From IMG/VR virus record IMGVR_UViG_3300033153_001834, positions 1 to 57,520 of that record: 57,520 bases of DNA; one strand, 5' to 3'. This document shows, in pieces, positions 7,884 to 57,130 of this stretch (position 1 is its first letter; each line of letters begins with the position of its first letter). The translations under genes and the position numbers were made by a program. This DNA comes from a virus. Lineage: Duplodnaviria > Caudoviricetes. The notes beneath the pieces were generated by a model. That model was not told the origin of the DNA. It worked only from the letters and a program-made list of their open reading frames with translations, and ran no database searches.

Positions 7884-8188
7884 AAGATGCCCCTCAGTAT
7901 TTAGAAGAAGCAAAAAATCTTATGATAGAACGTGGTAAGATTTATGATAATAGTGATAAAGAACGTAGTATGGAAGCTACAGTAAACGCTTTTAATGCAA
8001 TTACAGGAAAAAACTTATCCGAATCAGAAGGATGGGAATTTATGCTTATACTAAAGCAAGTAAGACAATTTAAAAATCTAAAATTTCACCAAGATTCTGC
8101 CGAAGATAGTGTAGCATACTCTGCTCTTTTAGCTGAAAGTCTTGAAAAAGAATCTAATCAATTAGTAGTAACTATTACTACGGAGTAA
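7880..8188 (+). CDS. DUF6378-like all-helical phage nucleotide-metabolism-associated protein
   Basis: ERG..YD...M.ILK..R....H.DS..D..AY.AL pattern. Confidence 0.65.
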   Translation: MKDAPQYLEEAKNLMIERGKIYDNSDKERSMEATVNAFNAITGKNLSESEGWEFMLILKQVRQFKNLKFHQDSAEDSVAYSALLAESLEKESNQLVVTITTE

Positions 8189-8195
8189 TTTTGCA

Positions 8196-8423
8196 ATGAG
8201 ATTAAAAAAGGCAATTAGAATTGCAAAAGATTGTGGATTAACTACTTTTTCAGAAGTTAAAAGAAATATTGAAATTCATGCTATGAATCTTTTTGAATGG
8301 AGTAAAGTAGAGGAAGAGTTAGCCGAACTTCAATTAGATTTAGAAAAGTTAGCAAAAGACTTTGGTGTAGAATTAGATGAATTGCTAACTTGGAAAATAA
8401 AGGAAATAGAAAATGACATCTGA
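8196..8423 (+). CDS. hypothetical protein
   Basis: packed ORF. Confidence 0.55.
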   Translation: MRLKKAIRIAKDCGLTTFSEVKRNIEIHAMNLFEWSKVEEELAELQLDLEKLAKDFGVELDELLTWKIKEIENDI

Positions 8424-8598
8424 AAAAGATATGTTTTCATTTTTAACAAACCTAAGAGATTCTGGTAAAATAAATATGCTAGGCGCAATTCCATTTTTAA
8501 TAGACGAGTTTAATATTGAAAGAGAAGAGGCTAGTCAAGTATTTGGCAATTGGCAAGTTTCATTATCAAAACCATACTGCGAGGATTGTGAATCATGA
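8413..8598 (+). CDS. hypothetical protein
   Basis: FL..LRDSG..NM.GA.P.L..EF pattern typical of small phage proteins. Confidence 0.6.
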   Translation: MTSEKDMFSFLTNLRDSGKINMLGAIPFLIDEFNIEREEASQVFGNWQVSLSKPYCEDCES

Positions 8599-8825
8599 AA
8601 AATTTATTATTTGGTTTATTATTAATGCCTTTAATTACATTCTCTCACGAATATGAATATACAGATAGTCGTGGAAGAGTAGTAGAACGCTATTTAGTCA
8701 AAGATGATATTATTAAAATTAAAGATAATCGTGGAAGAACAACAGGGTATATTAAAGACGAAAATTTATATAATAATCGTGGAAGAAAACAAGGTACTTT
8801 TATTAAAAAAAACGATTTACTTTAG
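8595..8825 (+). CDS. small exported protein with three (D/N)xRGR repeats
   Basis: signal-peptide-like MKNLLFGLLLMPLITFS; DSRGR, DNRGR, NNRGR. Confidence 0.6.
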   Translation: MKNLLFGLLLMPLITFSHEYEYTDSRGRVVERYLVKDDIIKIKDNRGRTTGYIKDENLYNNRGRKQGTFIKKNDLL

Positions 8826-10960: not shown

Positions 10961-11818
10961 ATGCCTAGCTTAAAATCATACCACGAAAGAAAAGAAAAAA
11001 ATAAAATTACAGAATTAATAGATGAAGCAGGAAAAACAATTGGTTATCCTAGACACTATATTGGTTTAAGCGGTTTGGGAGGAAGTTGTACTAGGGCTTT
11101 ATGGTTTACTTTTAGATGGTTTTCTATGGGCGAATTACCTGGAAGAACAAATAGAATTTTTAGAACAGGGCATTTATCAGAAGAAACTATGGTTAAAGAC
11201 CTAGAATCTATTGGTATTAAATGTTGGAATACTTTAGAAGATCAAGATGAATTTATAGATGCCCACGGATATGCTATGGGTCATCCAGACGGTTATTGTA
11301 ATAACGTACCTGGAGCAGAAAAGACTATACATCTTTTAGAATTTAAAACTATGAACGATAAAGCTTTTAAAGATGTAGGTAAAAAAGGTGTTAAAGAATC
11401 TAAACCAACTTATTATGCACAAATGATGCTTTATATGCATAAGAAAGGTTTAACAAGAGCATTATTTATGGCGATTAATAAAAATGACTCTTCTTATTAT
11501 ATTGAAAGATTAAAAGTAGATAATGCTTTTGCAAAAGAATTATTAAGAAAAGCAACAGATATAGTTTTTAGTGAAAATTTTAATGATTTCCCAAGAATAG
11601 GAAGCGGAAAGCCAAGTTGGTATGAATGTAAGTGGTGTAATTATTCGGATGTATGCTTCGGAAACGAAAAACCATTAAAGAATTGTAGAACTTGTAATAA
11701 TTGTAACTTAATAGGTGATGGTAAATTTGCTTGTGGAACAGGCGACGATTATGAATTAACCGTAAAGCAACAAACGGAAGGTTGCAAAGAACATATATAT
11801 TTGGAGTGTATTAAGTGA
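10961..11818 (+). CDS. Cas4-like PD-(D/E)xK exonuclease with Fe-S cysteines
   Basis: C.R.LW..FRW, GHPDG, LLEFKT, YYAQM..YM, CKWC.Y...C. Confidence 0.85.
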   Translation: MPSLKSYHERKEKNKITELIDEAGKTIGYPRHYIGLSGLGGSCTRALWFTFRWFSMGELPGRTNRIFRTGHLSEETMVKDLESIGIKCWNTLEDQDEFIDAHGYAMGHPDGYCNNVPGAEKTIHLLEFKTMNDKAFKDVGKKGVKESKPTYYAQMMLYMHKKGLTRALFMAINKNDSSYYIERLKVDNAFAKELLRKATDIVFSENFNDFPRIGSGKPSWYECKWCNYSDVCFGNEKPLKNCRTCNNCNLIGDGKFACGTGDDYELTVKQQTEGCKEHIYLECIK

Positions 11819-12261
11819 TAGAATTAACTAATAGTGATATTCAAATGCAAGCTATACAGCTTGTTAGAAAGATAGTAAAGAAACAATTTAATAATGGTAA
11901 ACATAATTTTGTTAAAATATATGGAGTTCCTAGAGGTGGAATTCCAATAGCTTATTTATTAAGAGGTCACTTTCTTGAAGCTATAGTAGTAGATGACCCA
12001 AAAGAAGCGGATTTTATAGTCGATGATATATTAGATTCAGGTGAAACTAAGAGAAGGTATGAGAGTCAGTATAAAATACCATTTTATACTTTATATGATA
12101 AACCTAATGAATGGATAAGTTTTCCGTGGGAAAAGAAAGATAATAGTACACCTTTATTTGATAATATCCTAAGAATAGAGCAGTTTTTAGATAGTGCTAA
12201 TTATGAAGAAAAAGTAACAATATTTGAATCATTAAATAATATTATTAAAAGTTATAAATGA
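11815..12261 (+). CDS. type I phosphoribosyltransferase (Gpt-like)
   Basis: YGVPRGG, VDDILDSGET PRPP-binding loop, WISFPWE. Confidence 0.85.
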   Translation: MIELTNSDIQMQAIQLVRKIVKKQFNNGKHNFVKIYGVPRGGIPIAYLLRGHFLEAIVVDDPKEADFIVDDILDSGETKRRYESQYKIPFYTLYDKPNEWISFPWEKKDNSTPLFDNILRIEQFLDSANYEEKVTIFESLNNIIKSYK

Positions 12262-14031: not shown

Positions 14032-14770
14032 TTTAAAAGAAATCAATGGTTTTATTAAGTCTTTTTCTCAACTTAGTTCTTTTAAAAAGTTTTGTGAACT
14101 AGTTATAATAGGAAATGGCAATGTTAATAAAAGTAAGATTAATTATACAAATAATTTATCAATAAGATTTATTAGAATAAATGAAGATTATACAGATAAA
14201 ATTATACCTTTCGCAAAATTAAGAGGCGAAGGGATGAGAAAATCTAATGCAGATTACTTTCTTTTTATGGATGATGATAATAGATTTCTAAAAAGTTGTG
14301 ATTCTTATTTTGTAAATTGCGTACAGTTTTTACAAGATAATCCTTTATGTTCAATTTTGCAAGCTGATAAAACTAGAGATAAAAAATATGGAGCTTATTA
14401 TAAAAGCGATGGTTTTTATTGGACTGGTTATGGTTTATTCTTAAAGAATATTATTAGAGATTATAATCAATTATTAGACTTTAAAGGTTGTTGTGAAGAA
14501 ACTTTATTTGCTTATGAAACTTTAAATTTAGATGGTTTATCATATACTATGTATGGTAATCCTACTTGGAGAGATACTTCTAAGCATCCTAAATGGAATG
14601 AGGAAAATAATAATTCATATAGCGAAGAAGTTATTCAAAATAATATTCAAGGATATATACAAGAAAAATATTGCGATAGTAATTGGAGATATTATCAAAA
14701 TATTCCAAATACTAGTTTACCAAATTTATTACAAGAAAAAATTAACAAAAGGATAAAGTATGAAATCTAG
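14000..14770 (+). CDS. GT-A fold (GT2-like) glycosyltransferase
   Basis: N-terminal IIIPT strand, FAKLR..G, YFLFMDDD DxD motif, CEE. Confidence 0.75.
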   Translation: MKIAIIIPTNNLKEINGFIKSFSQLSSFKKFCELVIIGNGNVNKSKINYTNNLSIRFIRINEDYTDKIIPFAKLRGEGMRKSNADYFLFMDDDNRFLKSCDSYFVNCVQFLQDNPLCSILQADKTRDKKYGAYYKSDGFYWTGYGLFLKNIIRDYNQLLDFKGCCEETLFAYETLNLDGLSYTMYGNPTWRDTSKHPKWNEENNNSYSEEVIQNNIQGYIQEKYCDSNWRYYQNIPNTSLPNLLQEKINKRIKYEI

Positions 14771-15314
14771 TGATATAATAATTTTTGATACCGAAACGAC
14801 TGGTTTAGATGCTCCTTTGGCAACTAAGATAGAAAGTCAACCGTATATAACGGAATTTTACGCAGTTCGTTTAACAAAAGATTTTGAATTTATAGATGAA
14901 GTAGAAACTATGATAAAACCACCTATCCCTATTTCAGAAGAAATAACAAAAATTACTGGTATTACAGATGAAGATGTAAAAGATGCCCCTAGCTTCATTC
15001 AAGTATATGATCAGATATATAATTTATTTGAATGCTGCAAAAACGTAGTAGGCCATAATGTTATGTTTGACTTAAGACTACTTAAGTTTGAACTTTTTAG
15101 ATATGATTTAGAGTATTGTTTTAACTGGCCAAGGAATCGTATTTGTACAGTAGAAAAGAGTAAGCATTATCAAAATAAAAGATTAACTTTACAAAAGTTA
15201 CATATTCATTTATTCGGTAGTGAGTTTACTGGAGCCCATAGAGCACGACATGATGTAGAAGCTACTGCAAAATGTTTTATGGAAATGGTAAGAAGAGGAG
15301 ATATAGTATTATGA
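14760..15314 (+). CDS. dnaQ: DEDDh 3'-5' exonuclease (Pol III epsilon-like)
   Basis: FDTETTG, ITGIT, VGHNVMFD, HRA..DVEAT. Confidence 0.9.
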   Translation: MKSSDIIIFDTETTGLDAPLATKIESQPYITEFYAVRLTKDFEFIDEVETMIKPPIPISEEITKITGITDEDVKDAPSFIQVYDQIYNLFECCKNVVGHNVMFDLRLLKFELFRYDLEYCFNWPRNRICTVEKSKHYQNKRLTLQKLHIHLFGSEFTGAHRARHDVEATAKCFMEMVRRGDIVL

Positions 15315-19715: not shown

Positions 19716-19741
19716 TCCCTTATAATTAATTTAAAAAGAAA

Positions 19742-20455
19742 GTGAGAAATAAGAAAATGGTTGATTTAGTATATAGAAATACATATAATATGTTTGTTAG
19801 ACCTTGTACTTCTGATGATTTAGTTTGCGATGAAGCTCAAGAATATTTAAGACTTTTTATTGATAAAAAAAATTATGATGTATTTCTTGATATAGGGGCT
19901 AATATTGGTTCTGTAACTTCTTTAGCAAAAGAAATTAATCCGATTATGGAAATAATCTGTTACGAACCAGATAAAGAGAATTTTGATGTATTGCATAGTA
20001 ATACTAAAAACTTTTCAAGTATAAGACGTTATAGAGTAGCATTAGGAACTGGAGAAAAAGATATTAATCTTTTTAAAGCAAAAGGTTCTAATAAAGGAAA
20101 GCACTCTATAATAAGTAGAAGTTGTAATATGGATAAACCAACTAACGTTCATCAATTAGATTTTAGAAAAGAGCTAATTAGAACTAATTGTACTCTTTTA
20201 AAGATTGATATTGAAGGTGGTGAGTATAGTTTAGACCTTTATAATTTACCAGAAAAAATTAAAGGTTTAGCTATTGAATTCCATCTTATAGATAATAACT
20301 ATAGTCAAATGCTTTATTTATATCAAGGAATTAAAAGTCAATTTGGTTTAGTTTTAGGTGATACTCCAGAAGAAGAGTCACTAGAATATTTTAAAGAAGC
20401 GTATAGTGAAAAAGACAGCGCATTTATGTGCATATTTTTAAGGAATGAAAAATGA
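19742..20455 (+). CDS. FkbM-family SAM-dependent O-methyltransferase
   Basis: FLDIGANIG, YEPD..NF, LKIDIEGGEY, IEFH. Confidence 0.88.
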   Translation: MRNKKMVDLVYRNTYNMFVRPCTSDDLVCDEAQEYLRLFIDKKNYDVFLDIGANIGSVTSLAKEINPIMEIICYEPDKENFDVLHSNTKNFSSIRRYRVALGTGEKDINLFKAKGSNKGKHSIISRSCNMDKPTNVHQLDFRKELIRTNCTLLKIDIEGGEYSLDLYNLPEKIKGLAIEFHLIDNNYSQMLYLYQGIKSQFGLVLGDTPEEESLEYFKEAYSEKDSAFMCIFLRNEK

Positions 20456-21795: not shown

Positions 21796-21853
21796 TATTG
21801 TAGCTACACAGAAGTCCATATAGCTATTATTTTTAATAAGTAATACTACCCCT

Positions 21854-21886
21854 AGCCTTATATTTTAATAGAGTATAAGGCTTTTT
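21854..21886. terminator. terminator at convergence of the two genome arms
   Basis: AGCCTTATAT...GTATAAGGCT-TTTT inverted repeat between convergent stops. Confidence 0.65.
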
Positions 21887-22220
21887 ATACGATTGTAATA
21901 TCTGCTTTATTAGTAGTAGAACTTCCATCCGCATTAGTTCCTGTCACATATATATCAGATAGAGTTTGAACTATAGTTGGAGTTCCATCTATTAATCCGG
22001 TTGTAGGATTTAAATTTAATCCAGTTGGTAAAGTACCTATTAATGTAAAAGAGACAATATCTCCACCTGTAAATAATGGTTCCACTTCATAAGAATATAG
22101 AACACTAGTCTGACCATTAGGAGGATTAAAAGTAGCTAATGCAATAGGTGGATTTCCATATCTTTGTTTAGCTTTTCTTCTTCTTGCATAATATAAAGCA
22201 GCTTGCATATTTGGTTTCAT
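21885..22220 (-). CDS. putative Ig-domain (He_PIG-like) virion protein
   Basis: GTLPTGLNLNPTTGLIDGTPT...VTGTNADG. Confidence 0.7.
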   Translation of the reverse strand: MKPNMQAALYYARRRKAKQRYGNPPIALATFNPPNGQTSVLYSYEVEPLFTGGDIVSFTLIGTLPTGLNLNPTTGLIDGTPTIVQTLSDIYVTGTNADGSSTTNKADITIV

Positions 22221-22770: not shown

Positions 22771-22910
22771 AGCTCTACCTTGAATCTAATCTTTTCTGAG
22801 ACATAAACTTTGAAACGAATTACTTTATCCCAGTATTCTAAGATTTTCTTAACTCCACCTTTAAGCCAAAATGGAGATTGCCCTTTTTTCTTTAATCCAA
22901 AAGTATTCAT
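22767..22910 (-). CDS. small paralogue of the KVYxS protein (47 aa)
   Basis: MNTFGLKKKGQSPFW...IRFKVYVSEKIRFKVEL; ATGA overlaps at both ends; not in ORF track. Confidence 0.55.
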   Translation of the reverse strand: MNTFGLKKKGQSPFWLKGGVKKILEYWDKVIRFKVYVSEKIRFKVEL

Positions 22911-25681
22911 TGTGGTGCAATCTCAATGATTTCACCTTCAGCATTTTCTATATAATCAAATACTTTACGGATAGTAGTCTGATCATCTTCATAAGTAGTA
23001 ATAGTTTTAACACTTTCATTAGTAATACGCTTATTCATTTGAGTTATATGAATGTCTTTAACTTCTTCTGGATTTAATGCGAAAAACTGAATAGAGCAAC
23101 CAATACCAGAATTATCAATTGGTTTAACATTACCAAAGATTATAATTTGACCATTAGTGCAAGAACTATCTATTTCTACCATACCAACTGCTATAATTTT
23201 TACTATATCTGTAGGTTGGTTACAATTTATGATAGTTATACCACCAACATACCCCATTAAAGCTAACTGAGCTGTACCAGTAATTCCACCTATACTTATA
23301 GTGGGTTTAGTAAAATCTGTAGATATCGCTGTACAGTTTTTAACTAATGCAAATCCACCATCAGGTACTTCGAATGTACTTGCTAATCCACAGTTTTCAA
23401 AATTACCATTTAAGTTAGTAACGGATGTACTAATTAATCTTGACTCTTGTACTGTAATTGAACCTGAATATAATCCATCTAAAGTAATATAAGTAAACCT
23501 AGAGCCATCTAAGTTTTGACTATTAGTAGTAATCTTAGATATATTAATACTATCAATATAAAAGTTTTTTATTTGTCTAGTAAATTCTATTTCTGACATA
23601 AGACGTAAATTTAAAATATTATGAAATTCTGCAAAATCTATAGCTATAGTTTCATTAGAAAATGGATTATGCTGCGAACCATCTTCAACTTCAGGATCAA
23701 TTAATTCTGAGTCTATATATAGTTTAAATTCTAAATGCTTTAAGTGAGCAGCTACACCGCCTAAAGTGTTAACATCATCGTAAGGCGTTAAATCTGTAGT
23801 TAATAATGTATCAGCATTTAGAATAGCTATATCTTGTTTCTCATGCGAAGTACCGCCACCTAAATCATTCACATTGCCAAGTGCATTATTAGCGATACTA
23901 TTACTAGCGCCAATTTGAACACCGGTAGAATTAGCCGTTATATTTATTCCATATCCACCGTTATTATGAATTACATTTCCGTTTTTAAATGTAACTTCAT
24001 GTCCAGTAGTAACATCAATAACAACACCGTCCTCAGTACAAGAACCAATATGGTTATGATCTAAAGTAAAGTGCTGAGACCCGCCATTTATACGTACACC
24101 ATAGCCAGTACTATGACCAACTCTAGTATTTTTTATTATACCATACGCACCATCAACTATAAGTATTCCATTTCCAGAATCTTCTATATAAATATTTTCA
24201 ATTAATGGAAAAGAAGCAGAGCACTTAATAGTCGCTATCGTATTAGTACTTTCGGTTGTTAATAACATACCAGATATTTCGCAACCGTCACCTTGCATAT
24301 CAACTGCGGCTAAATTATCATCGTTACAATGCATATGGAAATCACGACCAGGTCCACGAACAAATACATAGTTTTTAGTTATAAGTATTTGTTCATTAGT
24401 AAAAGTAACACCTGTTGGATCTCCAGATACACAAACAATTATATCATGGTTATTATCATTAACTAATTCATGAGCTCTAGCAAATGTTTTAGTTGCTCGA
24501 TGGGCATGGTCACCTGCGTTTGTATCATCTCCACCATATGGATCCCAGAACCAAATAATTCCAGTACCTGTATGGTGAGGACGAAGCAATTCAACTAAGC
24601 GGGTTAAGTTAGTAACTTCGGAACCAGATACAACTGTATTAACGACATAACATCCAGGACCACTATTATCTACTACTCTACCAACACCACTAAGCATTAT
24701 AATTCCGTCTGTACAAGAGGAATCTATTTCTACTTCAGCAGCATCAAGTCCGATACCTAATTCACTTGGTCCAGTAAGATTAGATATTTGTAATCTTCCA
24801 GAATAATTAGGCATTACTAAATTCTGTCCTGAAGAACCACAGTCAATAATAGGTACGCTCGTTATTTGCTGTTGATAACAATCTGTAATAGTAGCATCAA
24901 GCGAACCCGCTAATGTTATAACCCCATTTAAAGAGGAATCATGGATATGGCCATTAAAATAAGTAATATCGTGTACAACACAGTTTGTAATTTCACTATC
25001 ACCATCTAGTGTTCCGGTAATATCGAAGCTATCAAATGAAGTTTTTAAACACAAACAATCTGGATTAACGAGCATAGTGGTATTTACATGAGATACACCA
25101 ACCATATGATATCCACGAACGTCATCTCCAGTATCTAATACCATATTGGTAAGAATATTAATATCTGAAAAACCATAATATAATGCAATAGACACTGAAT
25201 CCGTAACGTTATTAGATGGACGTCTTCGTGTTCCAATTGGATATATAGTTCCGGCAACACCTTTTAAAATATCAATGGTAACCGCTCCGCCATACTCACC
25301 AAACTCAATAGCCTGTGATGTCACTAAACCAGCTGAGTTAGCAGAACGAATAGATACCTGATTAACATTAGTTACATCACCAACATTACTATTAGCCCCT
25401 TTTAGATTAACCGCATATTGACCATCTTCGAAAGTAACAGTATAGCTATTAATCATCTCAATAACACGCGCTAATGTTACACCACCAACAGTTACTTCTG
25501 TATTATGGTTATGAGTTTTTATAAATGACATCCCCTCTTCGTCATCCTCTAAATCTTTTAGAGTCAAACGAAAGGCATTTAAATCTAGCTCCCTAATTTC
25601 TGTAGGGACTGACTGAATTAAAGTCATATCATTGCGAGGAACAAAAACTATTTTCGAACCCCAATTAAGACTAATAGCCAC
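22907..25681 (-). CDS. large virion protein with parallel beta-helix (pectin-lyase-like) regions
   Basis: G.D.N.G.....A.KT...A motif and GxGI/NxI beta-helix repeats. Confidence 0.65.
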   Translation of the reverse strand: MAISLNWGSKIVFVPRNDMTLIQSVPTEIRELDLNAFRLTLKDLEDDEEGMSFIKTHNHNTEVTVGGVTLARVIEMINSYTVTFEDGQYAVNLKGANSNVGDVTNVNQVSIRSANSAGLVTSQAIEFGEYGGAVTIDILKGVAGTIYPIGTRRRPSNNVTDSVSIALYYGFSDINILTNMVLDTGDDVRGYHMVGVSHVNTTMLVNPDCLCLKTSFDSFDITGTLDGDSEITNCVVHDITYFNGHIHDSSLNGVITLAGSLDATITDCYQQQITSVPIIDCGSSGQNLVMPNYSGRLQISNLTGPSELGIGLDAAEVEIDSSCTDGIIMLSGVGRVVDNSGPGCYVVNTVVSGSEVTNLTRLVELLRPHHTGTGIIWFWDPYGGDDTNAGDHAHRATKTFARAHELVNDNNHDIIVCVSGDPTGVTFTNEQILITKNYVFVRGPGRDFHMHCNDDNLAAVDMQGDGCEISGMLLTTESTNTIATIKCSASFPLIENIYIEDSGNGILIVDGAYGIIKNTRVGHSTGYGVRINGGSQHFTLDHNHIGSCTEDGVVIDVTTGHEVTFKNGNVIHNNGGYGINITANSTGVQIGASNSIANNALGNVNDLGGGTSHEKQDIAILNADTLLTTDLTPYDDVNTLGGVAAHLKHLEFKLYIDSELIDPEVEDGSQHNPFSNETIAIDFAEFHNILNLRLMSEIEFTRQIKNFYIDSINISKITTNSQNLDGSRFTYITLDGLYSGSITVQESRLISTSVTNLNGNFENCGLASTFEVPDGGFALVKNCTAISTDFTKPTISIGGITGTAQLALMGYVGGITIINCNQPTDIVKIIAVGMVEIDSSCTNGQIIIFGNVKPIDNSGIGCSIQFFALNPEEVKDIHITQMNKRITNESVKTITTYEDDQTTIRKVFDYIENAEGEIIEIAPQ

Positions 25682-25691
25682 TTCTTATCTC

Positions 25692-29293: not shown

Positions 29294-29533
29294 CTATTTT
29301 CTATCTAATTCTGTGTTAAATTCTTTTATGTATAATGGTCTCATTATACGCAGTCTGTTCTCTTGTTCTTTTTTGTTGTATTTTATTTGCATTTCTAATA
29401 TAGTTGATTGCTTAGAAATCATTTTATCTAAATTTGATAACTTTTCATCTTGTTCACGCTGCCAATCAGTAGCATAAAGCATAGCACTTCCAAGAAAAGC
29501 AATAATTAGCATTAATATTTGCGTAACTTTCAT
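29294..29533 (-). CDS. membrane-anchored coiled-coil protein (i-spanin-like)
   Basis: N-terminal TM helix plus coiled coil, directly after endolysin. Confidence 0.5.
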   Translation of the reverse strand: MKVTQILMLIIAFLGSAMLYATDWQREQDEKLSNLDKMISKQSTILEMQIKYNKKEQENRLRIMRPLYIKEFNTELDRK

Positions 29534-29907
29534 CTTCTATCCCATCGTGCTTTTTCTGAACGAGTATCTATATGTATTCCCCAAGAATAAATGCCAATAC
29601 CATAAGTATTAGGAAATAAGTTATCCAAAAAAGCAAAAAGCTCTTCTGGTTTTTCTGTTTTGACATCTATTGCTCTACCTATTAAATGCTTAGATTTTGA
29701 AGAAAAAGCTATATAGTTTTTAGTATATTTTTTTTGAATCTTTTCATTATATTTAACGCAACGGCATGCTGAACTTGGAGAAAATGAACCTATTTTACTT
29801 CTTATAGCCTCAGCTATAGGAATAAGTTCAATATCAATAGTATCGTATCCGCATCCGCATTTACAAGCAAATTCTTTTCTCCAAAAATTAGGTGATATTT
29901 TGCTCAT
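29530..29907 (-). CDS. endolysin, peptidase M15A family
   Basis: NF..KEFACKCGCG, SACRC..YN, S.HL.G.A.D, GIGIY...IHID.R. Confidence 0.88.
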   Translation of the reverse strand: MSKISPNFWRKEFACKCGCGYDTIDIELIPIAEAIRSKIGSFSPSSACRCVKYNEKIQKKYTKNYIAFSSKSKHLIGRAIDVKTEKPEELFAFLDNLFPNTYGIGIYSWGIHIDTRSEKARWDRR

Positions 29908-30443
29908 TTCTTTTTATCTTTATTATCGTGATCACTTATTAAAGTATGGTTTGTTTTTATATCATCTTTTATATCAATATAAAAAGCACCTACCATAACA
30001 GAACCTATTAATATACAAGCATATAATAAATTTATATGATTTTTTGCAGTAGTCATTATTTCTGCTTTTATTCTAACTGCTAAATTAGTATGCGCTTCGT
30101 GAGACCTATCTTTAAAATCATTAAATTTTGAGTCTTGCTTTCTAATATTATCCCATATTTTATCAGTCTCGTGAGCTACTAATCTACTATGCTCTATAGG
30201 ACTTCTTTCAAATTTTAATGATAAATCTTTAATAGTATCATCGAAATGACGAATAGTTTTTTCTAACTGTATAACTTCATCAAATCTAGCATCTAATTTA
30301 GCTAAAACAGATGACATAGTTTTATCTAACTGAATTTGACTATTAAACGTTTCAGTTTGCTTTGATACTAATATAGAAAAATCTTTTTGTAATTGCACTT
30401 GAGCAATTTCAATTTCTTTTAGTCTTTCATCTTCTGTACCCAT
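29904..30443 (-). CDS. coiled-coil protein with C-terminal TM helix (holin candidate)
   Basis: LLYACILIGSVMVGAFYI TM; immediately upstream of endolysin. Confidence 0.5.
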   Translation of the reverse strand: MGTEDERLKEIEIAQVQLQKDFSILVSKQTETFNSQIQLDKTMSSVLAKLDARFDEVIQLEKTIRHFDDTIKDLSLKFERSPIEHSRLVAHETDKIWDNIRKQDSKFNDFKDRSHEAHTNLAVRIKAEIMTTAKNHINLLYACILIGSVMVGAFYIDIKDDIKTNHTLISDHDNKDKKK

Positions 30444-51274: not shown

Positions 51275-52090
51275 TTACTGAACAGCTTCACGTAAAGTTT
51301 TAGCTAGAGTTGGATTGTTCTTATTCAATTTTGCTTGTTCTGTAATAGAATAACCATTACCTTTCTTATCAAAAGGATTATTAGTAGCATTATACTTCTT
51401 ACCACCAACATTAATAGTTGTATCAGAACCTTGATTTTGAATAGGAAAAGCTCCTGAAAACGCTTCATTAGCTTGAAATTCAGCGATTAATTCCGAAACG
51501 ATCATAGGGTCACCAGTCTTTACGTTCATCCGTTCCGCACCAGAAGTATCAACTACTTTAGTTTTATAAAGACCATTTTCATCTTTAAAGGTTTGAATGC
51601 TATCTTTAATATGAGGCATTAATAGAACTTGAGAACCGTTTACCTTTTCAATTTCTTTTAAAGCAACGTTTTCAATTAGTTCGTGGTCTAAAGCTGATTT
51701 TAGCCCTACAATTTCTAAGTCTTTAGATATAGTTAAATCACTAACAATCTTTTCGTGACTATTAGTCATATCATTCTTAAGCTTATTCCAGTTTTCAGAT
51801 GCAACTAAAGCTTCTTCTTCAGCTTTAATTCGATCAGATTCGATTTTATCTACATTTTCGATATATTTAGTATATCCATCTAAATCTAAACCTTCAGCTT
51901 TCTTTGATAATTCTTTAGCATCATTTAAGCGACTAATAAGGTCAGAATTTTTATCAACTAAACCTTTCTTTTGATTTTCAATATCTGTATTATATAGAGT
52001 ATCAAAGTTTTCTTGAACAGCTGACATTAATTTTGCTTGGTCTTCTGTTAGGTTTAGCTCTTTCATTAAATCTTTTATTGCAATTGGCAT
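51275..52090 (-). CDS. capsid scaffolding protein
   Basis: coiled coil (GL..KN..L), NPF......TEQAKL...NP.LA C-terminus; ATG at 52090 after AGGAAGGA. Confidence 0.75.
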   Translation of the reverse strand: MPIAIKDLMKELNLTEDQAKLMSAVQENFDTLYNTDIENQKKGLVDKNSDLISRLNDAKELSKKAEGLDLDGYTKYIENVDKIESDRIKAEEEALVASENWNKLKNDMTNSHEKIVSDLTISKDLEIVGLKSALDHELIENVALKEIEKVNGSQVLLMPHIKDSIQTFKDENGLYKTKVVDTSGAERMNVKTGDPMIVSELIAEFQANEAFSGAFPIQNQGSDTTINVGGKKYNATNNPFDKKGNGYSITEQAKLNKNNPTLAKTLREAVQ

Positions 52091-52120
52091 CTTATTTTCC
52101 TTCCTGTGTTTAAAAATATA

Positions 52121-52142
52121 GGCGTTAAGATTAGTTAACGCC
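52121..52142 (-). terminator. stem-loop after the tRNA-like/leader/protein cassette
   Basis: GGCGTTAA-N6-TTAACGCC followed on - strand by TATATTTTT. Confidence 0.55.
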
Positions 52143-52153
52143 ATTTTACTAAA

Positions 52154-52522
52154 TTATGCAGCTTTCTTCATTTCTGGAGACTGATAAATTCCAGACTTCC
52201 ATTCGTTTAAAATCTTTAGATTTTCTTCACGCTTATCTGAATCAGAATATTTTTCAACCATAGACTTAACTTTACTCCAGTTAGGTATGGTCATAGAAGT
52301 TCGTTCTATTTGTTTATATCCTAAACCTCTTATTAATCCATAAGCAAGATAAGTTGCTCTTGCAATAGGTCTAATATGAGTAGTTCTATGTAAATAGATA
52401 GATTCTCTTCTCATATTTGATTTATAAGAAAATTTACCTTTTTTAATTGATAACTCTTCTTTACGAATAATGCGTGATTCTTCTGCTAACGATTTTATTT
52501 TGATCTTTAATTCAATACTCAT
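52154..52522 (-). CDS. basic helical protein of unknown function linked to tRNA-like RNA
   Basis: TAAGGTG SD, ATG at 52522; LKIKIKSLAEESRIIRKEE...HR...IR..ARATYLAY....G..Y..IE. Confidence 0.75.
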   Translation of the reverse strand: MSIELKIKIKSLAEESRIIRKEELSIKKGKFSYKSNMRRESIYLHRTTHIRPIARATYLAYGLIRGLGYKQIERTSMTIPNWSKVKSMVEKYSDSDKREENLKILNEWKSGIYQSPEMKKAA

Positions 52523-52572
52523 GATATTCACCTTATTGTTTAATTTTAATTGTTATTTATAAAAAAATTAAA

Positions 52573-52612
52573 TCAATTTGGTGGTCCACGGTTATGAAAT
52601 TCAATGCTTCAT
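52573..52612 (-). CDS. leader peptide MKH-(UGAA)-FHNRGPPN requiring +1 recoding
   Basis: AGGAGA SD (52624-52619); ATG AAG CAT TGAA TTT CAT AAC CGT GGA CCA CCA AAT TGA. Confidence 0.6.
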
Positions 52613-52642
52613 AATTATTCTCCTATATTTTACGCTGTAAAA

Positions 52643-52711
52643 TGGTGAGTGTGCAGGGAATCGAACCCTGTGCTACCGGATTGAAAGCCTTTTGCAAAGC
52701 CCTTCACACCC
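52643..52711 (-). tRNA. non-canonical D-armless tRNA-like RNA, 8-nt anticodon loop (UUCA)
   Basis: GGGTGTG/CACACTC acceptor stem, A-CCA end, CAGGG-TTCGATT-CCCTG T arm; no D stem; TGC-AAAA-GG[CTTTCAAT]CC-GGTA-GCA arm. Confidence 0.75.
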
Positions 52712-52765
52712 TTAAAAAAATTATTTTAATAAACAAAAATAAAATAATAAAACAAAATAAAATAA

Positions 52766-56670: not shown

Positions 56671-56876
56671 TAGTAGTCCTCTGTTATGTTTTTATCTTCG
56701 ATAAACTTTTCTTCAAATTCTTTTATTGACCTTATATATACAGTAACTAGTAATGGATTTTGATATACTACCATATCTTGGTCTTTATTATCTGTTACAT
56801 CTAAACCAATATAAAGAACTTCGTATAAGTCATTCGTTTTAATGTTTCTATAGTAGTGATTAGGAGAAATATTCAT
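56670..56876 (-). CDS. DUF1653-like small protein
   Basis: YR..K....YEV......MVVY......R...EF.EKF. Confidence 0.7.
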   Translation of the reverse strand: MNISPNHYYRNIKTNDLYEVLYIGLDVTDNKDQDMVVYQNPLLVTVYIRSIKEFEEKFIEDKNITEDY

Positions 56877-57130
56877 AAATCCTCAAAATTTATTGGTAAG
56901 TCTAGTGTTTGTCGATTTAACTGATTATTATATGCTTCGCAATGATCTATATCTTCTTGGCCCATTGCTACTTCGCATTTCGTTTCATTATTACTATTAC
57001 AATTTTGACAATCGTTATTTTTATAATTCAAATAATAGGACTCTGCCCATTCTATTCCATTACACTTTCCTCCAGTTAATCTATGAGGAAAAGGATAAAT
57101 ACTACAAAAGCATGTTACTTGCTCTCTCAT
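56873..57130 (-). CDS. Cys-rich hypothetical protein
   Basis: C.C..YPFPHR...GKC, CQNC. Confidence 0.6.
   Translation of the reverse strand: MREQVTCFCSIYPFPHRLTGGKCNGIEWAESYYLNYKNNDCQNCNSNNETKCEVAMGQEDIDHCEAYNNQLNRQTLDLPINFEDL

Follow-up and report, generated by a model that had tools for sequence, protein, structure and literature searches.

The 57,520-nt window analysed here is a whole IMG/VR virus record (IMGVR_UViG_3300033153_001834), about 95% complete and with a G+C content of about 30%. On its minus strand, among the genes for the terminase large subunit, the portal, the head scaffolding protein, the major head protein and the tail, lies an insert that carries a 69-nt tRNA gene without a D arm. 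In two related phage contigs, whose portal proteins are 64% and 58% identical to that of the window, the scaffold gene begins about 30 nt past the portal stop; in the window the two genes are about 650 nt apart, and both related phages have nothing at that site. Judged by its sequence, the inserted block looks like a self-contained cassette. It consists, in this order, of the tRNA gene, a Shine-Dalgarno (SD) sequence with a mini-open reading frame (mini-ORF) ending in UGA-A, a strand complementary to a ribosome-binding site (the anti-RBS strand), the gene of a 122-amino-acid protein (hereafter the partner protein), and a terminator-like hairpin (Table 1). No match to the locus came up in a blastn search of 50,697 phage records. 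We consider it fairly probable that the short RNA is a functional stop-suppressor tRNA which, by way of the leader, would license translation of the partner gene.

Table 1. Positions, in the window, of the parts of the inserted cassette
Feature	Position	Strand	Basis or remark
Inserted cassette, portal stop to conserved scaffold RBS/start	52113..52765	-	comparison with two related phages
D-arm-less tRNA gene, 69 nt	52643..52711	-	sequence, constrained fold, covariance model, ARAGORN -mt
Acceptor stem GGGUGUG/CACACUC, 7 bp, G2.U71	52711-52705 / 52653-52647	-	
Connector AAGGGCUU, 8 nt, in place of D arm	52704-52697	-	
Outer helix UGC / GCA	52696-52694 / 52673-52671	-	
4x4 internal loop AAAA/GGUA	52693-52690 / 52677-52674	-	
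Inner helix GG / CC	52689-52688 / 52679-52678	-	
8-nt loop CUUUCAAU	52687-52680, UUCA at 52685-52682	-	
T arm CAGGG-UUCGAUU-CCCUG, canonical	52670-52654	-	
Discriminator A73	52646	-	
Encoded CCA	52645-52643	-	
Hairpin UUUUAC-AGC-GUAAAA directly after CCA	52628..52642	-	folded
Leader SD AGGAG	52620..52624	-	7 nt before AUG
Leader mini-ORF AUG AAG CAU UGA + conserved +4 A	52601-52612 + 52600	-	opal stop, cognate to UCA/UUCA
Second in-frame stop UAA	52592..52594	-	two codons past UGA; gap to box 10 nt
Anti-RBS strand CCGUGGACCACC, 12 nt	52580..52591	-	minimum free energy (MFE) folds
Partner gene SD AAGGUG	52529..52534	-	sequestered in predicted leader fold
Partner gene, 122 codons with ATG, stop TAA	52154..52522	-	P0001 = residues 2-122
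Terminator-like G+C hairpin with T-run	52121..52142	-	between partner gene stop and scaffold RBS; closes cassette

The tRNA gene has neither a D stem-loop nor a variable region, and its anticodon arm abuts the T stem with zero spacer. A sequence-only reading of the same DNA had described a 7-bp acceptor stem with a G2:U71 wobble, discriminator A, an encoded CCA and a canonical T arm, and we found all of them on the minus strand. Its view that the D arm is replaced by an 8-nt strand, AAGGGCUU, keeping a GG was borne out by relatives: GG occurs in 25 of the 26 rows of alignment A3, with one G column invariant, as read by eye and without a script count. The anticodon arm it had drawn (UGC/GCA, AAAA/GGUA and GG/CC, abutting the T stem) came back from ViennaRNA when only the GG/CC hairpin was constrained; this run returned exactly the fold with the acceptor stem, the T arm and the extended arm. 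The TTTTAC-AGC-GTAAAA hairpin that had been noted after the CCA is also present; it does not follow the tRNA of the nearest relative, locus L005, and by this comparison is lineage-specific. An alternative fold with a GCA (Cys) anticodon had to be given up: the GCA bases make up the 5′ strand of the outer helix, and relatives do not keep them as GCA.

In bacterial mode, ARAGORN reported 0 genes in the window, and an Rfam scan of the window at gathering thresholds found no match. In place of the undetermined or pseudogene call that had been expected of ARAGORN, its mitochondrial modes (-mt and -mtmam) returned a 69-nt 'D-loop mtRNA' at the same coordinates, labelled Glu(ttc) by -mt. In a permissive Rfam scan the best match was transfer-messenger RNA (tmRNA; RF00023), with a score of 20.5 bits where the cut-off is 47. 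The alignment covers just the two ends and skips 328 model positions, and the element, 69 nt in all, has neither a tag reading frame nor pseudoknots. Of the two resemblances suggested in the sequence-only reading, the one to mitochondrial tRNAs is upheld by the ARAGORN call, and the one to tmRNA is limited to the acceptor and T arms. G3.U70 is the alanine identity pair of tmRNA; the element has G3-C70 instead, its wobble pair being G2.U71. Searching for the T arm plus 3′ acceptor strand as a pattern gave no exact match in the viral contigs or prokaryote genomes searched, so no cellular tRNA or tmRNA with an identical 3′ half was found.

Relatives of the element were collected with a covariance model, R1, built from 26 short members with the window element among the seeds. 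The R1 search of the window yielded one match of 68.1 bits (E ~7e-23), a score that partly reflects the seeding because the element is itself one of the 26. Family members score 41-71 bits, with 41-63 bits for the non-seed members L037, L044, L065 and L033, and most ordinary tRNAs of the same loci stay below ~35 bits. The tRNA-Glu-like genes of loci picked by motif reach 37-47 bits and overlap the lower end of the family, because the loop hairpin is common to both.

We based family statistics on 30 non-redundant short members (68-73 nt), parsed by anchors, from phages of 44-73% G+C. The acceptor stem has 7/7 pairs in 29 of them and the T stem 5/5 in 28, CCA is encoded in 25, and the loop is CUUUCAAU in 25 and AUUUCAAC in 5. 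The discriminator varies (G in 12, U in 10, A in 8), so the amino-acid identity cannot be read from the sequence, as had been stated before. Compensatory changes are seen in the acceptor, T, outer and masking helices. Examples are the acceptor stem (GGGUGUG in the window and L005, GAGUAUG in L007) and the outer helix (AGG/CCU in L034, AAG/CUU in L023). The closest relatives (L005/L006, L007 and L008; partner proteins 50-64% identical by tblastn) are all D-arm-less and 69-70 nt long, which excludes them as the full cloverleaves from which the sequence-only reading feared a recent deletion. In a protein quick tree, the clade of the window, L005 and L007 is D-arm-less throughout and has a support of 95. 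This comparison confirmed that the element belongs to a phage RNA family whose sequences indicate upkeep by selection, not decay, in line with what the intact arms had suggested.

On the model-fitted alignment, 78.4% of the cells are paired, against 57.1% after shuffling. The covariation score is 0.537 against 0.182; 0 of 500 shuffles reached 0.537, and slid registers gave at most 0.211. For the outer helix we used a null model in which the inner hairpin was fixed and the flanks were shuffled; a helix counted if it had 3 bp or more, ended no farther than 1 nt from the T stem and left 6 nt or more for the connector. Such a helix is found in 25 of the 30 native members, whereas the 20000 simulations led to an expectation of 6.5 and never exceeded 17. 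This is more than chance pairing would give, and the covariation in the extended arm on which the sequence-only reading had staked its fold has support at the level of the family. In those 25 members the 5′ strand of the arm is 7-10 nt long and the 3′ strand 8-11 nt. The arm amounts to about 9-10 layers, roughly the length of the stack of D stem and anticodon stem in a canonical tRNA (about 10 layers). The staggered 5′ ends in raw MAFFT alignments kept RNAalifold from finding anything but the T arm.

The loop can be read in two registers. In the window copy alone, the 7-nt and the 8-nt register are nearly tied (G.U + G-C versus GG/CC); the stems of relatives, such as CCGG-CUUUCAAU-CCGG and ACGG-...-CCGU, fit the 8-nt loop only. 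In this register, UCA occupies loop positions 4-6, and UCA or UUCA is complementary to the opal codon; UUCA is a four-base complement to UGA-A, as in quadruplet decoders. The 8-nt loops of the family have the form N-Y-(U/C)-[UCA or CUA or UUA]-A-N. The same slot in relatives is filled by CUA loops, one UUA loop, and also by plain tRNAs with 7-nt loops, amber CUCUAAA or opal UUUCAAA. ARAGORN labels the tRNAs at these loci cta, tca, ttc, and also 'tc', 'ct', 'ttca' and 'ccta'. As far as sequences tell, the common denominator of the slot is a stop anticodon. The element has the anticodon of a stop-codon suppressor tRNA; suppression itself is a prediction, for which the cognate stop in the neighbouring leader speaks indirectly.

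Three features had escaped the sequence-only reading: this 8-nt loop with its stop-type anticodon, a leader mini-ORF ending in the matching UGA-A, and the partner gene. We studied the gene linkage in 69 viral loci and 1 genomic locus that encode the partner family, with 85 unique ORF copies. In these loci a tRNA or short tRNA-like gene adjoins the partner ORF on the same strand, and a strict parser placed a stop-anticodon tRNA within 1.6 kb of the ORF in 60 of the 85 copies. The partner protein is predicted to be all-helical with a long N-terminal hairpin (predicted local distance difference test, pLDDT, 90.3). It is basic, with invariant Arg, Lys and His residues, a conserved N-terminal helix and an HR..VR..AR..AYGLIRG motif. 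A word-indexed search returned 20 related proteins, and a full profile search 3567 representative clusters at E ≤ 0.001. The protein has no match in Pfam, PHROGs, NCBIfam or PADLOC and no fold match in the PDB (best E = 3.5). Matches to its fold in BFVD were only uncharacterised phage proteins, the ESM Atlas gave no usable match, and longer or fused forms were not found, which is weak evidence.

The C-terminus is -AA in 26 of 71 partner reading frames, including the window copy (-KKAA). It brings to mind the end by which ClpXP recognises the ssrA tag, a likeness only. The idea that readthrough of the partner's own stop masks such a degron was dropped, the stop being TAA here; across the family, the partner stops are mixed (TAA 35, TGA 19, TAG 16). 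Our guess would be that the partner is a labile regulator or a tRNA-binding factor that feeds back on suppression.

The window leader reads AGGAG, 7 nt, AUG AAG CAU UGA A, UU UCA UAA and CCGUGGACCACC. Nearly every opal-type locus has the same layout: the SD is followed by a mini-ORF of 2-7 codons and UGA-A-U, and a CCNCC box comes 4-25 nt (mostly 13-22) after the stop. In amber-type loci the leader stop is UAG. The combination of SD, mini-ORF, stop and CCNCC box occurs in 54 of 85 regions upstream of the ORF and in 41 of 850 random windows of the same loci; for the pentamer TGAAT the counts are 36/85 and 3/850. At loci whose tRNA follows the ORF, such as that of Stenotrophomonas phage DLP5, the leader still precedes the ORF.

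From locus to locus, the leader stop corresponds to the anticodon. An automatic parse of unique loci gave 31 pairs of UCA with TGA, 7 of CUA with TAG, and 4 off-diagonal cases (Fisher p = 3e-6), 3 of which turned out on inspection to be choices of the parser. The base after the stop (+4) is A in 29 of the 31 leaders paired with 8-nt U-UCA loops and varies with 7-nt amber loops. In many loci UGA-A is usually followed by U and then G, which gives an in-frame UGA AUG; this may permit re-initiation or belong to the decoding context.

In the predicted window fold, CACC of the anti-RBS strand pairs with GGUG of the partner SD, and CGUGG with UCAUG including the start codon, with two more flanking pairs. 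The leaders of the window and L005 fold alike, with a compensatory change from CACC/GGUG (window) to CUCC/GGAG (L005). Across 50 leaders, pairing of the partner SD with the 33 nt behind the stop has a mean probability of 0.68, and of 0.31 when the segments are shuffled; the native value exceeds 0.5 in 40 of the 50, and in 26 of the 50 at most 3 of 60 shuffles reach it. The reading frames between the leader stop and the box also differ. Of 33 opal-type leaders, 19 have a stop before the box in frame 0 (1-4 codons on), none in frame +1 and 3 in frame +2, and in 13 of the 19 frame-0 cases exactly 7 nt separate this second stop from the CCNCC box. The leader resembles an attenuator in that it has its own SD and short ORF and a predicted RBS-hiding pairing within reach of the ribosome.

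Three sets of annotated or predicted RNA genes beside the partner family deserve mention. In phage DLP5, the partner ORF is followed 8 nt on by an annotated tRNA-Sup-CTA, and the leader upstream of the ORF reads SD-AUG-AAG-UAG. In Agrobacterium phage OLIVR1 (L076 1312-1388; MT234338 40274-40347), a gene annotated as tRNA-Val, with the loop GCCCUAAC, lies about 100 nt upstream of the ORF. After it come an SD, GUG AUC GAA CCU CUG UAG A and CCUCC, and then gp84, which is annotated as a 'putative structural protein', a label for which we found no basis in the main text of the paper. The tRNA-Val label looks wrong because the loop is amber-type and the leader stop is UAG. Additionally, tmRNA genes lie 0.02-2 kb from a partner homologue in L033 (3018-3392), L035 (4456-4864), L049 (3287-3675) and L058 (2294-2727). 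According to ARAGORN, 3 of these 4 are permuted forms; that of L058 stands directly behind the partner homologue, and no suppressor tRNA was found in this locus.

Sequence comparison yielded the RNA family and its structure, the gene linkage, the match of stop and anticodon, the masking helix, the spacing and the insertion. From these we infer a switch in which the tRNA would be expressed, trimmed, charged and used for decoding, with decoding turning the partner gene on rather than off. The 8-nt loop would present UCA (or UUCA) to the opal codon, and one long anticodon arm would stand in for the stack of D stem and anticodon stem. In the OFF state, the release factor would end translation at the leader UGA, and the anti-RBS strand would stay paired with the partner SD and AUG. 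In the ON state, the cassette tRNA would read the UGA. With triplet reading the ribosome would continue to the UAA two codons on and park there; alternatively, with four-base decoding, it would pass through the strand in the +1 frame. The +1 frame is open up to the box in 33/33 leaders and a second frame-0 stop exists in 19/33, and both readings would free the RBS. By footprint reasoning, a ribosome at the first stop would leave the box free, whereas one past the first stop would cover or unwind it. The advanced ribosome would cover or melt the anti-RBS strand and free the RBS, and the 122-aa protein would be made. The tRNA would be a stop suppressor with a built-in reporter, its partner being made only when suppression works.

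Several observations speak against this interpretation. The unconstrained MFE structures of the 69-mer and of its central part favour a competing rod-like hairpin, so the tRNA fold of the window copy rests on its homology with relatives. The fold of the 69-mer is no more stable than that of shuffled sequences (z -1.75), the inner helix of this copy is weak, being GG/CC only, and the central segments of the 30 members are not unusually stable (mean z -0.2, 0/30 below -2). The model-fitted alignment is biased towards the model and puts some 5′ acceptor strands out of register, for which reason the acceptor helix (helix 1) is only 64% paired in it. A lenient per-sequence test of the outer helix with free position was not significant in a partial run, and the protein quick tree leaves 51 of 79 inner branches open.

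The linkage and the leader have exceptions as well. No typed tRNA was assigned to 25 of the 85 ORF copies and no leader, by pattern, to 31; in such copies parser limits, short flanks and true absence are not separable. The loci are related, so their counts overstate the number of independent events. Locus L062 (2307-2376) is a true mismatch, with an ochre-type loop, AUUUUAAA, beside a leader ending in UGA-A; possible explanations are a recent C-to-U substitution in the loop and wobble reading. Taken alone, the AT-rich window copy has a masking probability of 0.80 against 0.62 in shuffled sequences, and 10 of 60 shuffles are as high. A promoter scan stayed at chance level (3 sites, 3.9 expected), and among the sequencing runs listed there was no RNA run matching the locus, two DNA runs holding 4-5% of the sampled words. 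Additionally, no gene of this phage needs suppression, and its TGA-ended genes show no convincing extension past the stop.

A further objection comes from ARAGORN -mt, which takes the loop as 7 nt and the anticodon as UUC. The RNA could be a D-arm-less tRNA-Glu(UUC) with the 7-nt loop CUUUCAA closed by G.U, which would cause a prfB-like +1 shift at the UGA, GAA being read as Glu. Such a tRNA would use another amino acid and frame than a suppressor and keep the same switch logic. ARAGORN also calls several full-length relatives Glu(ttc), the letters of the loop are those of true phage tRNA-Glu genes, and the window copy hardly discriminates between the registers. The conserved leader motif UGAAU holds GAA one base on, which agrees with the frequent +4 A and with a +1 frame that is open to the box in every opal-type leader. 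Against a glutamate tRNA, the relatives with longer stems fit only the 8-nt register, and the same protein and leader occur with CUA loops and UAG leaders, including the 7-nt CUCUAAA, which has no Glu reading at all. The precisely spaced second stop in frame 0 suits triplet reading of the UGA.

We also searched in the reverse direction, using the loop hairpin and T-loop letters as a motif in at least 80 loci and looking for the protein with a hidden Markov model on six-frame ORFs. Among the unique elements listed, the ORF was found near 0 of 20 canonical tRNA-Glu(UUC) genes (full D arm, 5-bp stem, 7-nt loop), near 12 of 13 short elements (≤73 nt; the exception has less than 700 nt of flank) and near 9 of 12 full-length tRNAs whose stem register forces an 8-nt loop. 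The 3 full-length 8-nt-loop tRNAs without the ORF, among those listed, count against our interpretation. From these counts, the partner protein goes with the 8-nt-loop class and not with tRNA-Glu, and we regard the glutamate reading as unlikely.

The RNA might also act without decoding, as punctuation for RNase P/Z, as a protein-bound partner RNA (SmpB-like) or through a T-box-like contact between loop and UGAA without a ribosome. A role of shape alone would suit the variable discriminator, and the best Rfam match is the tRNA-like domain of tmRNA, tmRNA genes lying near the partner ORF in 4 loci. The basic partner protein with its invariant Arg, Lys and His residues could be an RNA binder of this kind, and this phage offers no suppression target; nor is one given for phage Summit by its authors in the available text of their genome note (PMC9022506). 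A direct RNA-RNA contact between loop and leader would, however, need neither the strong SD nor the well-spaced start that precede the matching stop in most loci, and the spacing of the second stop points to a ribosome footprint. The mostly encoded CCA (25/30), the perfect acceptor and T arms, the full-cloverleaf amber suppressors in the same slot and the missing G3.U70 alanine mark likewise argue for decoding. We rate a non-decoding role as quite improbable.

A decaying pseudogene, an attachment-site remnant or a chance look-alike would agree with the failure of standard detectors, the unremarkable stability of the 69-mer and the lack of a matching RNA run; it is very hard to reconcile with 30 members from phages of diverse G+C that keep perfect arms, GG and loop, with compensatory changes in four helices, with a conserved gene order and with a position inside the head-gene cluster far from any integrase, and on these sequences it is close to refuted and highly improbable. 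A more specific idea, that the element is a phage attachment site (attP) or a fragment of tmRNA, was dropped: both acceptor strands are present, the element sits in the head cluster, and G3.U70 is lacking.

The suppressor interpretation can be set beside several known systems. Metazoan mitochondrial tRNA-Ser(AGY) is an example of a D-arm-less tRNA, and the phage element shares with this type a connector in place of the D arm and the retention of the acceptor and T arms. It differs in belonging to a bacterial phage genome, in its canonical T arm, encoded CCA, missing variable loop, 8-nt loop and stop-type anticodon, and in an anticodon arm that contains an internal loop and is extended to about 9-10 layers. 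We know of no adapted EF-Tu or synthetase for it. With the tRNA-like domain of tmRNA and SmpB (RF00023) it has in common the acceptor stem, T arm, ACCA, a GG-bearing substitute for the D loop, a helix replacing the anticodon stem and a gene for a small basic protein close by. Unlike tmRNA, it has no G3.U70, tag frame or pseudoknots, and its partner matches no family or solved fold.

The frameshift suppressors sufD, sufJ and SufB2 and the engineered UAGN and other quadruplet decoders also have an 8-nt loop with an extra base 5′ of the triplet, and in them, as with the A after UGA in 29/31 leaders, the fourth codon base is complementary. In its form, N-U-NNNN-A-N, the loop agrees with engineered quadruplet designs. 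In contrast to these suppressors, the phage elements would be a natural family aimed at stop codons. An 8-nt loop can reportedly read triplets too, as in yeast mitochondrial tRNA-Thr1.

For the leader, the nearest parallels are ermC-type attenuation and the autoregulation of RF2 (prfB) at an in-frame UGA, both switches that depend on the position of the ribosome. Shared with them are a short translated leader, one deciding codon and an alternative pairing that hides or frees the next RBS; as in prfB, the release factor competing with another decoding event at UGA would set the output. The proposed decider is different, being a dedicated cassette tRNA and not an antibiotic, the amino-acid supply or the regulated protein.

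Suppressor tRNAs as such are known from phages. The cassette family includes the 'tRNA-Sup-CTA' genes of the Stenotrophomonas phages DLP5 and Summit; these are full cloverleaves with 7-nt loops, whereas the window tRNA is D-arm-less with an 8-nt loop. Stop-recoded crAss-like phages also carry suppressor tRNAs; the window phage instead uses the standard code, with TGA ending the portal gene and other normal genes. Recoding was rejected for it, since reading TGA, TAG or TAA as sense merges no real genes. The genome note of Summit, in the text available, describes a suppressor tRNA without target genes and of unknown purpose, and that text does not mention a link to a leader and partner gene (PMC9022506). 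A cognate leader would be the first concrete target for such purposeless suppressor tRNAs of standard-code phages, as that note presents them (PMC9022506).

That bacterial machinery can handle a D-arm-less suppressor-type adaptor was reported by Edelmann et al. 2024, whose available text states that the HisRS, EF-Tu and ribosome of E. coli accept the engineered 'mini HisT' (PMC11551756). It was man-made and required a host pnp mutation for stability (PMC11551756). According to the same text, all known bacterial tRNAs are cloverleaves (PMC11551756), and therefore a natural D-arm-less phage family would be new. In the available text of a 2020 review of non-canonical tRNAs, the words 'phage' and 'virus' do not occur. 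In our literature search of main texts, neither a D-arm-less phage tRNA nor a cassette of tRNA, leader and protein turned up. tRNAs, suppressor tRNAs and leader-controlled translation are known, and it is their combination that appears to be undescribed.

If natural, a D-arm-less phage family would revise the all-cloverleaf view of bacterial tRNAs and supply minimal, possibly orthogonal suppressor tRNAs for work on the genetic code. A link to stop-codon decoding would give a functional handle on the 3567-cluster partner family. As a small natural device that senses how tRNA and release factor are balanced, the arrangement would be of interest both for translation control and as a part for synthetic biology.

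A broader proposal, which we put forward tentatively and would not bet on, is that the cassette is a portable 'self-reporting suppressor' circuit, widespread among phages and composed of an orthogonal stop tRNA, a leader that gauges the activity of this tRNA against the release factor of the host, and a labile feedback protein made only on successful suppression. Its tRNA, often D-arm-less with a four-base anticodon, would then be the first natural non-cloverleaf tRNA on bacterial ribosomes, and its labile partner, often ending in an ssrA-like -AA, would feed back on termination or on the tRNA. Such a circuit would explain the orphan suppressor tRNAs of standard-code phages and give the phage a dial on stop-codon readthrough in the infected cell.

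The cassette also bears on the annotation around it. The alignment with the two related phages shows a conserved scaffold RBS and start at 52113-52088, so the scaffold gene most likely starts, on this comparison, at the ATG at 52090 and not at the in-frame upstream ATG at 52144 given in the plain ORF list. A terminator scan of the region found 2 terminator-like sites, one palindrome counted on each strand, against 0.3 expected; the predicted hairpin at 52121-52142 would terminate a transcript of the cassette itself within the head operon.

Elsewhere in the window, the coding strand switches at ~21800-21900: long ORFs are on the plus strand before this point and on the minus strand after it, and the GC skew changes sign there. 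On the coding strands, A follows 7 of 10 TGA-terminated long ORFs, the context that matches the UUCA of the tRNA. TGA-ended ORFs lie at 8172-8423, 11815-12261, 14757-15314, 19730-20455, 22907-25684, 29530-29913 and 56873-57130. We found no convincing extension of TGA-ended genes in frame 0 or +1, and the '-1' continuations are ordinary overlapping next genes. Behind ORF 8172-8423 (plus strand), the +1 frame is open for 57 codons after TGA-A (8424-8600) and has its own ATG; this stretch is more probably a small gene in its own right than the product of a frameshift.

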